64,000 nt of DNA from Octopus vulgaris (taxonomy: Eukaryota). Made by a program: the position numbers and the translations under genes. The stretch covers positions 63,426,001 through 63,490,000 of the forward strand of contig OX597815.1 of the NCBI GenBank assembly GCA_951406725.2, read 5' to 3'. Shown in pieces: positions 12,378 through 57,569 of this stretch (positions within the stretch are counted from its first letter, which is position 1; each line of letters begins with the position of its first letter). The notes below the pieces were generated by a model. That model saw only the letters and a program-made list of their open reading frames with translations. It was not told where the DNA came from and made no database searches.

Positions 12378-12717
12378 TATGGTCTACTTTTCCATTAAGG
12401 TAAGATCAACAAAAAATGTACCCCATCCGGGGAGAGATAAATATTGTTTAATGTGCACAGTATATAGTTATGAGCTACTAATAGTTTCATACATTAAAGA
12501 TATCATCTACGCAGGTATTAAAACACACCAAGGGTCACCAAGTAATGTTCAGGCTCTGGGTATATGGATCTTATTAGGCTCTTTCTTCCATATATCGAAA
12601 GGCCAAGCGTACAAACCTGAAGATTTCTTGGAGACACAAGGCGAGTTTAAAACGAAAATTTCAGTGTATAAAACTATTAGTAGCTCATAATTATATTCTG
12701 CGTGCATTAAACAATAT
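12378..12717 (-). mobile_element. Fold-back hairpin element: arms 12441-12498 / 12659-12717, unpaired tail 12378-12440
   Basis: atattgtttaatg...gagctactaatagttt vs aaactattagtagctc...cattaaacaatat; arms carry GAAACTATTAGTA (hammerhead 3' half) and the loop has CTGAAGA. Confidence 0.75.
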
Positions 12718-12814
12718 CTATATCTATCTATCTATCTATCTATCTATCTATCTATCTATCTATCTATCTATCTATATATATATATATATATATATATATA
12801 TATATATATATATT

Positions 12815-12975
12815 TAAAAAAGGAGATGTAGAACACGAGTTGTTATATATAAAAAAAGGAAATGAAGAAAATGCTGACAAAATAATTTAAGTAAGGGAGA
12901 GTGTATTTAATTAGGTGAAAGTTATTTTTACCGGTTGCGCATTTGTTATGCTTATCAAAAGATAGAGTTCCTTTC
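12815..12975 (-). mobile_element. Short (TA)n-flanked element with degenerate hammerhead at 12925-12960
   Basis: Minus strand TTGATAA-gcat(aacaa)atgc-GCAA-CCGGTA; 3' tail caactcgtgt shared with 52985-53010. Confidence 0.55.
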
Positions 12976-13148
12976 TGATTGATTTTTTCTCTTATCTGTA
13001 TATATATATATATATATATATATATATATATATATATATATATATATATATATATATATATATATATATATATATATATATATATGTATTATATATATAT
13101 ATATATATATATATATATATATATATATATATATATATATATATATAT

Positions 13149-13528
13149 AGGCACAGGAGTGGCTGTGTGGTAAGTAGCTTGCTAACCAGCCGCATGGTTC
13201 CAGGGGTTGGGCAAATGTCCACTGCGTAGCATCTTGGGCAGAAACTGAAAGAAGCCTGTTGTATATGTGTATGTATATATATATATATATATATATGTGT
13301 GTGTGTATGTGTTTGTGTGTCTGTGTTTGTCATCTAGCATTGCTTGACAACCGATGCTGGTGTGTTTACGTCCCCGTCACTTAGCGGTTCGGCAAAAGAG
13401 ACCGATAGAATAAGTACTGGGCTTACAAATAATAAGTCCCGGGGTCGATTTGCTCGACTAAAGGCGGTGCTCCTGCATGGCCGCGGTCAAATGACTGAAA
13501 CAAGTAAAAGAGTGAAAGAGTAAAGAGT
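13149..13528 (+). mobile_element. SINE family B
   Basis: ggcacaggagtggctgtgtggtaagtagcttgct head to gtaaaagagt tail repeats. Confidence 0.9.
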
Positions 13529-13669
13529 ATATATATATATATATATATATATATATATCGACGGACTACTAACATATGTTCCTTTACCCTTTATTTATAT
13601 TATTATAACGAGTTTTTATTTCTTTGGTTTGCTTTTCTTATTAATATCATTGGTGTTATGTCTTCGTAA

Positions 13670-14372
13670 ACTCTGTAACTCTTCTGAACGGTTCCCTTGT
13701 TTAAGATGGTGAATGCTACCATGATCCTTGCCTTTAGTTCATCTTTGGTGTTACAAGTAGTTTTGTTGGTCTCTCGTTCAACACCGCTCCACACATAATA
13801 ATGAAGGTGGTTGAAGTCTGGAGAGTTAGGTGGTCAGATGTTAGGGGTGGTGTGGCCGCAGAAATTGTCTGACAGCCATGACTGAGTTTTCCTGCTTGTG
13901 TGGCATAGTGCAGAACCCTGTTGCTAGACATATGGTCTTCTAGCAGTCACCCTCTTGACCCAGGGCGGCACTACCTCCTCCAGACACTTGATGTAGGCCT
14001 AGTGCTGAGTCCGAGGGCGAGTGAGATGAATGGAGGCATAACGTTGTCATCACTAGTGATCACTCCAAACACCATGATGTTGACTGGATGTTTTAATTTT
14101 TATCACTCTCGGTACAGGTCTTCAGATTGCACTGACCTTAGATTGACACCCAAACGCTGAAATGTTCGTATTGGGGCTTCTGGCGCGAATGCCATGAATT
14201 ACAGCATGCTGCTTCCAAATTTCTGTCAGAGTGAAGTACGTCTTGGTGTAGTATTTATCATAGATTGCTCCTAACTGAACATACTATACTGTGTAGTTAA
14301 CAAAATAAAAAACAATGCGCATGTGCGAAATTAAAAATATAAATTGGCAACAATTTACCCATCTCACCCTTA
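13670..14372 (-). mobile_element. Tc1/mariner (maT/DD37D-like) deletion derivative, degenerate
   Basis: Minus strand encodes WSGVERETNKTTCNTKDELKARI; colinear with 34183-35072; end agggtgagatgggtaaattgt. Confidence 0.8.
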
Positions 14373-14793
14373 CTGTCTTTATCGTTATTTGTACTGTTTT
14401 TTCTTCATTTGTATTGCTTTTACGTCCTGTTCTTGTCACTTTTTTTATTACCCCTCCGCAAAAATTTTTATTTAATTCATTTTGCGGGAAGGACTGTTTC
14501 GGTGTGGTCGTGTTCTGCTCTTACCTTCGAAACACGCATTGAGTCGAAACAGGGGAAGCTGAAGAAGGGAAATGCTCTTTGTGTTGTTTGTCTTGCACTC
14601 TGTTTTTTCGTTGTTAAAAAAAGTCCGTTTCCTTGCTTGTGTTTTTTGTTTTCGTTTCTCGTTGTGTTCTACGTTTATTTATGGTGTCCTGTACTCATAT
14701 ATGCATGTATATATACATATAGATGTAGGTATATACATATATGTATGTATGTATGCATATGTTTTATTTATTAAATTGTTATTATATATATAA

Positions 14794-15025
14794 ATAAATA
14801 CAGTGTACTTTTAAACACCTAAGAGGTATCCGTCATAGGATTCCTTACACGCCAGAAGGATCAGCTAAAGTCCAAACCTGTTCCTTCTAGGGTGCAAGGA
14901 ATCCTATGACGGATACCTCTTAGGTGTTTAAAAGTACACTGTATTTATATGAATAATATATAGTCTATTGACTACATGCTAGGACACAGGTAGTAAAAAA
15001 ATTTCTAAAATCCATATTACCCTGA
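14794..15025 (+). mobile_element. Fold-back hairpin element, family H1 (palindrome 14794-14948 plus tail)
   Basis: ~53-bp perfect arms ataaatacagtgtac...ggattcctt / aaggaatcc...gtacactgtatttat; tail tagtctattgacta...taccctg. Confidence 0.9.
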
Positions 15026-55508: not shown

Positions 55509-55812
55509 GGCTGACTCTGTGAGTAAATAAAAACATTCTGGGCCGAATCCAGAACCACAATTCTGAAATTTTGGATTCCCAAGTTTTCATTACTGTGATT
55601 GTTTTCGGCGATTTTTTTTTACGTGACTTTTTGCGACAAATTTTTTTTGTACGATAACAAATTTTATAATCTAAAGGCTAACTCCATGAGTAAATTAAAA
55701 ACATTTCAGGACGAATCCGGACCTGCAGTCCTGAAATTTTGGATTCCTATCTTTTCATAACTTTGATTGATTTTGGTGATTTCTTTTACAAGTTTTTTTT
55801 TTTTGTGACAAA
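55509..55812. repeat. Diverged tandem duplication, period ~167 bp
   Basis: ggct.actc..tgagtaaat..aaaacatt...ctgaaattttggattcc at 55509 and 55676. Confidence 0.8.
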
Positions 55813-56009
55813 TATGATCATTATTGGGATATGAATCTGCAGGAGGCAATTGCAACAAATTCTCCAAAACAAGTCAGAGATCTGTTTGTAGGTCTTCACA
55901 TTCAGGGTCAGTTGCTTAAAAGCTATATACTAGCTTAAAAGCCGCCCGATAGGCATCTTGATGCAAACAAGAAAAAGAGAACTCAAAATATGAATATATG
56001 TATATTTTT

Positions 56010-56446
56010 ATTAATATTTAGTATAAGTAACAGAGTGACTCAAGGTTCGAGAGTTTCGTGTGTTGGCACTTATTAAATTATTCACAGGTCGAAGGTCTGT
56101 AAGTTTATATAGATGTTGACAGATAAATATATTTCCCTATGGAATGTTCTAGAACGTATTATAATAATGTCACGTGGATAATTCAAACTGTTTACCCGTT
56201 ATGTCGTTCAATAAGCAAATACATAAATTTGCTTATTGAACGACATCTCGGGCAAACATTTTGAATTATCCGCGTGACATTATTATAATACGTTCTAGAA
56301 CATTCCATAGGGAAATATATTTATCTATTTTATCAGCAGCTATAAAAACTCACAGGTCTTTGACCTCTGAATACTTTGATAAATGGTGCTAACGCACGAA
56401 ACTCTCGGGCCTTGGGTCACTCTGTTACTTCTATTTGATATTAATA
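56010..56446. repeat. Fold-back palindrome, ~210-bp arms, ~6-nt loop, hammerhead-like remnant in the arms
   Basis: Centre caataagcaaat-acataa-atttgcttattg; TTGATAA..gtgc(taac)gcac-GAAA-ctctcg at 56376-56412. Confidence 0.92.
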
Positions 56447-56455
56447 TATGTATTG

Positions 56456-56631
56456 TATAAAAGATCGTGGGTAAAGCCAAAATAATGCGAAGTAAATGCA
56501 AGGTAAACCACAGGAAAACAAATATGTGAATTAATGTAGATTTACCTTGTATTCAATATTTCGAGATTATGATCCCATCTCCAAAAAATTGACGAATGTT
56601 GCCGATGTGGCCTTACCCACGATCTTTTATA
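56456..56631. repeat. Fold-back inverted repeat, 24-bp arms with an inner hairpin
   Basis: tataaaagatcgtgggtaaagcca / tggccttacccacgatcttttata; inner tgcaaggtaaa / tttaccttgta. Confidence 0.85.
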
Positions 56632-56889
56632 GAATATATTCTACACAATGCTTCATAGTAATTATTCCATTATAATACACACACACACACACACACACAC
56701 ACACACACACACACACACACACACACACACATTTATTTATCTATCTATTTCATATATGTACCACAGGTAAATGCATATATGTCTATTGTGTGTATATTAC
56801 CCTGTATGTATCTGTGTATTATTTACGATTTTCTCTCTCTCTTCTCTTCCCTACTGTCTTTAGTTATGTGGTGTGTGTGTGGTGGGTGT

Positions 56890-57280
56890 TACTGTTCCGG
56901 TCGTGTTTTCTATTGAGGCTCGGTCTGTTTACTGCTATGTGTATAGCCTCTGTGATCTAAGTGTCCTGTCATTTCTATGTGTGAATAGTATTTTAACCTC
57001 TATGCTAATATTCGAGCCTCAATGTTGGTAGAGCGCTGACGAGCTTTTCTCTGACGTTCTCCTATGCTGCGTGCAGTCTCTGCAATGTAGGTAGCTGTCA
57101 TGTTTCTGCACCGTCCCCCAGTACATCGTAAGCTATACACTACATTCCTAACCTTACAGTTAGTTAACCCGTGGGTTCTTCCTATATACAAAAAATTGCA
57201 CGCTGTACAGAGGGACTTATGAATGGGACAGATGCTACAGATCAGGAATTTTATAAGGGCATCAGGCCTCTCTACTGCTT
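56890..57280 (-). pseudogene. Penelope-like element GIY-YIG endonuclease fragment (3' end of ORF)
   Basis: CSICPIHKSLCTACNF...NCKVRNVVYSLRC...C...TYIAETARSIGER, then after frameshifts EAIHIAVNRPSLNRK. Confidence 0.85.
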
Positions 57281-57342
57281 TATATATATATATATATATA
57301 TATATATATATATATATATATATATATAGTGTGTGTGTGTGT

Positions 57343-57569
57343 ATGCGTACCAGAGTAAGCACATAAATGTGAAACAAGGTGAAGAAAATAGTACTGGAAT
57401 ACCGGAGGTAGAGTAATGTCCTTTTTTATTAATGCTGCAAAAACATCACAAAAATATCACAAGAAACTGCTACTCAGAGTTTCATGTTCCCATTCTCAAC
57501 TATGTCCGACGAACTGAAACGTGAAACTCTGAGTAGCAGTTTTTCGTGATATTTTTGTGATGGTTTTGC
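57343..57569 (-). mobile_element. Fold-back hairpin element (palindrome 57437-57569, left tail) with hammerhead at 57503-57538 (+)
   Basis: Arms catcacaaaaatatcac..aaactgctactcagagtttca / tgaaactctgagtagcagttt..gtgatatttttgtgatg; tgt-CCGACGA-ac..gt-GAAA-ctctga-GTA-gca. Confidence 0.85.

Follow-up and report, generated by a model that had tools for sequence, protein, structure and literature searches.

We analyzed a window of 64,000 nucleotides from Octopus vulgaris (NCBI GenBank assembly GCA_951406725.2, contig OX597815.1, positions 63,426,001 to 63,490,000 of the forward strand), an AT-rich, repeat-dense stretch of eukaryote-type DNA in which a previous reading of the sequence (here, the original prediction) had reported eight palindromes with a tail on one arm. 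We label these elements by the positions reported for them, namely, E1 (12378), E2 (14794), E3 (20267), E4 (28561), E5 (33250), E6 (52982), E7 (53992), and E8 (57343); these positions are the left outer ends, off by at most a few bases. All eight palindromes were confirmed. Local scores of arm against arm ranged from 84 to 392, compared to maxima of 33 to 47 for 100 dinucleotide shuffles of each element, and the ungapped arm identity was 0.77 to 0.95. The stubs are 160 to 530 bp long and have no open reading frame (ORF) remaining. Their turn-around point varies, as had been claimed, from 3 nt in E3 (20501-20503) to 292 nt in E7 (54048-54339). Two additional palindromes, X9 (56002..56453) and X10 (56448..56660; 32-bp arms and a possible tail on the right), were found that directly adjoin one another (56002-56660).

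E1 (palindrome 12438..12720, arms 12438-12553 and 12616-12720, arm identity 0.79) carries a minus-strand tail at 12380..12437 whose match to a solo copy (about 11256-11305) scored 77, the shuffled maximum being 20. E2 (palindrome 14794..14948, arms 14794-14864 and 14878-14948) has a plus-strand tail at 14949..15024 and E3 (palindrome 20366..20638) a minus-strand tail at 20268..20365; the tail sequence is common to E2, E3, and E7. In E7, the tailless left arm (53993..54122, minus strand), which remains homologous to the family for at least 75 nt of the apparent spacer, is paired with a short right arm plus tail (54340..54465, plus strand; arm part 54340-54393). E4 (28562..28824) is an old palindrome with an 11-nt loop and an arm identity of 0.77, followed by a possible tail at 28825..28878 (plus strand) that was recognized by sequence inspection. 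E5 (33248..33578) consists of a 160-bp one-sided extension and arms at 33408-33464 and 33524-33578. The E6 palindrome (53008..53508) has 220-bp arms with an identity of 0.945, and its tail of about 26 to 30 bp (52982..53007, minus strand) is common to a solo copy at about 12816-12965 that ends near 12816. E8 (57437..57569) has a minus-strand tail at 57345..57436 that is backed by sequencing reads; throughout the family its tip is fixed near 57348 and is followed by (TA)n. In total, tail lengths ranged from 26 to 160 bp. The predicted single extra tail per palindrome is thus element sequence in six of the eight cases, as judged from a second copy or from reads, and the tails of E4 and E5 match no second copy.

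In E1, E2, E3, E6, and E7, the tailless arm often ends within the element at an AT-rich site where a few bases, as many as 8 nt in E6, agree with the adjoining (TA)n; microhomology priming is a possible explanation. The seemingly tailless end of E8 at 57569 may be an interruption, since another hammerhead stub abuts it. This stub, N8 (57572..57697, plus strand), is a solo copy from another high-copy family.

E2, E3, and E7 are members of one family, and their comparison permitted a number of conclusions. (i) In all three tailless arms, the AT-rich repeat begins no more than about 10 nt from a single anchor. (ii) All three tails stop at one common hexamer, 75 to 101 nt beyond this anchor. (iii) The inward reach of the six arms varies and amounts to about 55, 71, 84, at least 130, 135, and 135 nt. 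(iv) Arm identity is 0.86 to 0.98 within elements versus 0.62 to 0.73 between elements. This family and that of E8 therefore contain 5'-truncated copies with a fixed 3' end, each facing an inverted 5'-truncated copy head to head; the direction is set by the common fixed ends in E2, E3, and E7 and by the hammerhead in E6 and E8. No centre is held in common, since those of E2, E3, and E7 differ and the joints in the E8 family vary, nor are there symmetric terminal inverted repeats (TIRs), the family tail being on one side only. Because the outer ends are fixed, the centres vary, and the tails are one-sided family sequence, the stubs are not miniature inverted-repeat transposable elements (MITEs) with fixed TIRs, which bears out the original prediction. 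Its proposal that a new palindrome arises at each insertion also appears to be correct, judging from the fixed ends, the variable centres, and the pairing of arms by element.

The original prediction had suggested plotting family ends against centres, and sequencing reads provided such a plot for the E8 family. Contigs at 80% likeness from 4 of 24 runs were aligned to positions 57332-58220, resulting in 6,703 to 10,037 aligned contigs per run. Loose ends piled up at 57348 in all four runs (74 to 106 contigs each) and are followed by (TA)n. The family extends 5' of position 57503 in 56 to 102 contigs per run, and the E8 centre is therefore a truncation point. Among the 15 joints listed (78 in all), 11 connect the other arm to a tailed piece whose break is at 57378-57462, in some cases with 1 to 40 letters in between. 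The four strand-change joints represent at least in part single copies mapping across both arms, and one head-to-tail joint was listed. The majority read letters at 57515, 57517, and 57536 restore stems II and I of the E8 hammerhead. The plot thus produced a fixed tail tip and variable head-to-head joints, and the MITE explanation is rejected for this family on the basis of one fixed end and variable centres.

According to the original prediction, the ribozyme strand points outward in both arms wherever a hammerhead half is readable. We scored hammerheads with a relaxed descriptor of our own, using 40 shuffles per arm; it returned 12 matches (3 of which are in microsatellites), versus 3 in 128 kb of reversed and complemented controls. 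The direction is clear in two of the eight elements. In E6, putative minimal hammerheads with a U3-A8 core are present in the left arm (53071..53102, minus strand) and in the right arm (53422..53453, plus strand); both read outward and scored above all 40 shuffles. In E8, the motif at 57506..57535 (plus strand) is whole in the right arm, reads outward, and likewise exceeded 40 of 40 shuffles; the tailed left arm ends within stem II and retains only the 3' half. The outward motif in E1 (12617-12662) is weak, its score being reached by 4 of 40 shuffles, and E2, E3, E4, and E7 contain no significant hammerhead under this descriptor. Of the two additional palindromes, X9 has outward motifs in both arms, reached by 3 and 1 of 40 shuffles, and X10 has a hammerhead-like motif in its spacer that reads along the left arm. 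In E5, the best motif (33527-33556, minus strand) points inward and has noncanonical positions; the right arm scored 21.8 (0 of 40 shuffles) and the left arm 18.1 (4 of 40). Two inward matches that were judged false, in the right arm of X9 and in N8, also exceeded 40 of 40 shuffles. The controls reach the E5 score three times in 128 kb, so that the motif may be either a chance match, which by a rough estimate has a frequency of about 5% over eight elements, or an exception to the polarity rule. The rule therefore rests on two clear elements together with X9 and X10, and its proposed generality is not supported, given that the direction is clear in only two of the eight elements and that one may break the rule.

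Other approaches to the hammerheads were less informative. In Rfam, no hammerhead family was among the best 150 of 254 matches of the window, which were microsatellite-driven microRNA families, or among the 9 matches for 57335-57700. A strict descriptor did not separate the window from shuffles and missed E6 and E8. A covariance model built from eight motifs outside E1 to E8 recovered only its training set below an E value of 0.1; it missed E5, E6, and E8 and, being too narrow to find the latter two, says nothing about E5. Nor did the T/A strand skew decide the direction of E5. Single hammerhead motifs folded alone gave no hammerhead fold, and a search of metagenome contigs for the E8 pattern found none. 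At least seven more hammerhead-like motifs lie outside the palindromes, at 3565-3591 (plus), 12929-12958 (minus), 32560-32591 (minus), 44144-44170 (plus), 50292-50321 (minus), 57592-57619 (plus), and 63604-63631 (minus), several of them in solo stubs that end in (TA)n. Both window copies of the N8 family (57572-57697 and 63520-63660) have U for A at core position 6, and the summed read depth of this family is far above that of E8. A possibly longer, decayed copy of the N8 family, interrupted by repeats resembling short interspersed elements (SINEs), is at 61960-63900 (minus strand).

As regards the insertion sites, 14 of 16 element ends are within 10 nt of a simple repeat, compared to a background of 12%, a comparison that is partly circular. 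The targets are thus AT-rich or microsatellite DNA, and (TA)n follows the E8 tail tip in all four runs. E5 together with its (TA)n tracts is enclosed by a 12-bp direct repeat (33217..33228 and 33727..33738, plus strand), a probable target-site duplication (TSD) that lies outside the adjoining (TA)n tract; a repeat of this length is present in 2.7% of random flank pairs. If it is a TSD, the (TA)n tracts are no older than the insertion. A 65-bp repeat with a minus-strand hammerhead-like motif is found at 33152-33229 and 32526-32590, and one copy ends at the 12-bp repeat flanking E5.

In combination, these features correspond to those published for endonuclease-containing Penelope-like elements (PLEs). 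PLE insertions are described with adjacent inverted pseudo-long terminal repeats and an optional 31-bp tail, the head-to-head arrangement being the commonest (Arkhipova et al. 2013, PMC3846280), and as an inverted 5'-truncated copy with a 30- to 40-bp tail at one end and a bias for (TA)n (Craig et al. 2021, PMC8557442); a guide to transposon curation gives the same features (PMC8969392). Insertion units of endonuclease-containing PLEs share with E1 to E8 the head-to-head copies, the tail at one end, the palindromic junctions, AT-rich or (TA)n targets, and mostly hidden TSDs. PLEs are reported to be abundant in Octopus vulgaris (PMC13282606). For PAc, the Poseidon PLE of Anolis carolinensis, both strands are cut and extended in vitro at an AT-rich target, and two start sites define the tail (Frangieh et al. 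2024, PMC11167929). This corresponds to the two fixed 3' ends that bracket the tail in the window, downstream of the hammerhead, and agrees with the proposal of the original prediction that reverse transcription starts in the tail. The PAc data do not model the formation of inverted arms, and the start sites in the window are deduced from DNA ends only. Metazoan PLEs also have minimal hammerheads, including some with a U3-A8 core, with opposite-strand pairs 100 to 700 bp apart (Cervera and De la Pena 2014, PMC4209133), and the window motifs resemble them in their type I topology, a tiny palindromic helix III, the U3-A8 core of E6, and the opposite-strand pairs. They deviate from these in that, in E8, core position 4 is C and the basal pair of stem II is A-U, and N8 has U at position 6. 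The family of E2, E3, and E7, which lacks a hammerhead, would fit the Naiad PLEs, which have no canonical hammerhead, prefer (TA)n, and are listed for Octopus species (PMC8557442). A comparison of eight short window motifs with the supplement of that article, in which long sequence runs are incomplete, gave no informative match.

Taken together, these data make it probable that the lopsided palindromes are insertion stubs of several PLE families, generated by dual priming and head-to-head joining of the resulting cDNAs. What is seen directly are two fixed outer ends per family, variable centres, AT-rich flanks, arms that are alike within an element, and an outward hammerhead where the motif is clear. 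[quoted passage not shown] The cutting and extension of both strands by a protein with GIY-YIG nuclease and reverse transcriptase domains, at two start sites bracketing the tail, is the step that would be taken over from published PLE work. The outcome would be a sense strand that runs outward in both arms, a single tail, and for every insertion a centre of its own. Equal stops would give the tiny loops of E3, E4, E6, and X9, and an earlier stop of the tail-primed copy would give the lopsided centres of E2, E7, E8, and X10.

A number of observations weigh against this explanation. Five of the six verified tails are 55 to 100 bp long, which is above the 30 to 40 bp published for endonuclease-containing PLEs, and the window stubs are without an ORF. 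A clear hammerhead is missing in five of the eight elements, and the best motif of E5 reads inward. A direct repeat of at least 12 bp was found for only 1 of the 10 elements. In the reads, loose ends did not accumulate at the inner end of the arm among the 24 entries listed (1,099 more exist); the joints carry a bias from the reference and could be mimicked by later lopsided deletion. No PLE reverse transcriptase or GIY-YIG domain was detected in Pfam with seven frames from E6 and E7 and six from two other regions; these queries were short and decayed. One phmmer search (62480-63070, one frame) gave no match, and three homologue searches, with one of the three minus-strand frames of the E7 spacer and with two frames of the E6 centre, were empty; the protein-level queries were decayed single frames of 40 to 240 amino acids. 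Since no PLE coding link was found, the assignment of the stubs to PLEs is graded as likely only. Seemingly PLE-like peptide motifs in E6, E7, 4750-5100, and 62480-63070 were not used as evidence.

How the second arm is made is less certain; the formation of PLE inverted repeats is itself called open (PMC8557442, PMC11167929). The original prediction had offered fold-back or template switching, and fold-back is the alternative closest to our explanation, because it involves the same PLE-type stubs and competes only with this one step: the tail-primed cDNA would prime itself, and lopsided centres would be due to later deletion, the palindromes being unstable. Self-priming has been proposed for inverted PLE junctions (PMC3846280), and the near-perfect centres of E3 (3 nt), E4, E6, and X9 suit it; such centres would also be expected if one RNA was copied twice to its 5' end. 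If the tail-primed strand folded back, the unpaired centre would be expected to come from the tailed arm, and the opposite was observed. In all four lopsided centres that could be assigned, the extra sequence is that of the tailless arm, firmly in E2 and E7 and less firmly in E8 and X10. The 13-nt centre of E2 scores 40 against the left arm of E7 when read as left (tailless) arm and 22 when read as right arm, and the homology of the left arm of E7 into the spacer scores 53, which was reached by 0 of 200 shuffles. The read joints, moreover, link tail-only stubs to the hammerhead-bearing arm. Plain fold-back is thus unsupported, as the tailless arm holds sequence that the tail-primed strand never copied, and it is the template-switch half of the earlier proposal that survives. 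This sample is small, ownership could not be assigned in E1 and E5, and later lopsided deletion could blur the pattern. E6 behaves in the opposite way to E2 and E7, with slippage in the tailless arm and a tailed arm that is complete. At its centre (53228-53310) is a perfect 16-bp palindrome, after which the tailless arm repeats a 16-nt unit in three slipped copies; these look like microhomology jumps, and their start at the central palindrome speaks for fold-back. On balance, we hold fold-back to be possible but doubtful. A more specific version of our explanation, which we advance tentatively and consider somewhat unlikely, is that the mirror arm arises by twin priming on a single RNA, from the inner start site and the still-free tail, so that the tail-primed strand must displace the first cDNA. 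The tailed arm would then never be the longer one, and perfect centres may mark the 5' end of the RNA instead of a hairpin. Our literature search, which left most subscription journals outside its coverage, turned up no paper on such a model.

Explanations other than PLE insertion were judged less probable still. The stubs might be separate, retrozyme-like hammerhead retroelements with short master RNAs of their own that are mobilized in trans. The very high copy numbers and the absence of a detected coding link would agree with this, and non-LTR retrozymes are reported to be nonautonomous PLE derivatives that, like the window elements, are short and noncoding and contain type I hammerheads (bioRxiv 10.64898/2026.07.22.740005). 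They are, however, defined as head-to-tail tandem arrays, whereas E1 to E8 are all inverted pairs with a tail; furthermore, the window families continue 5' past the centre with varying inner ends, and PLE machinery would still be needed. We consider this origin improbable. Much less probable is that the elements are MITEs or foldback DNA transposons, the apparent tails being flanking DNA. The annotation of Octopus vulgaris includes MITEs (PMC13282606), and the palindromic shape and the one probable 12-bp TSD would be in line with them, but the tails consist of family sequence and occur on one side only, the centres differ in family coordinates, solo single-arm copies exist, and hammerhead motifs are present. 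This explanation is largely refuted for E1, E2, E3, E6, E7, and E8, which leaves it E4 and E5 alone. It is no more credible that two independent insertions landed head to head in one microsatellite. Stacked stubs such as E8/N8 and X9/X10 are indeed dense in the window, but the arms pair by element, the E3 junction deviates from symmetry by no more than 3 nt, and none of the eight centres contains a microsatellite target.

The window also contains features unrelated to the palindromes. Remnants of long interspersed elements (LINEs) are at 9112-10794 (minus strand; weak zf-RVT match) and at 17649-19427 (plus strand; RVT_1 with an E value of 9e-29 and a weak endonuclease match in Pfam). The AT-rich region 4500-6000 is a possible decayed ORF; in Pfam, no match of note was obtained with three plus-strand frames from 4750-5460. 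A repeat of about 700 bp, presumably the remnant of a DNA transposon, is present in two copies (13677-14369 and 34186-34887). A small GC-rich palindrome at 21119-21173, whose arms are perfect over 15 bp and whose loop is 7 nt long, is unlike E1 to E8.

The palindrome rule is probably for the most part a rediscovery of the published PLE insertion signature, with E5 as a possible exception. This architecture went unrecognized in the original prediction, and the rule itself, as a restatement of a known signature, matters little as a discovery. It is of practical relevance for annotation, since such stubs could be misfiled as MITEs, SINEs, or microRNA hairpins; E8 indeed has microRNA matches in Rfam, below the curated cutoffs. 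If, as E5 suggests, the duplicated target encloses the (TA)n tracts, insertions of this kind may seed microsatellites. The arm to which the centre belongs is a cheap genome-wide statistic that would separate fold-back from double priming, and thousands of such stubs in the genome would allow direct counting.

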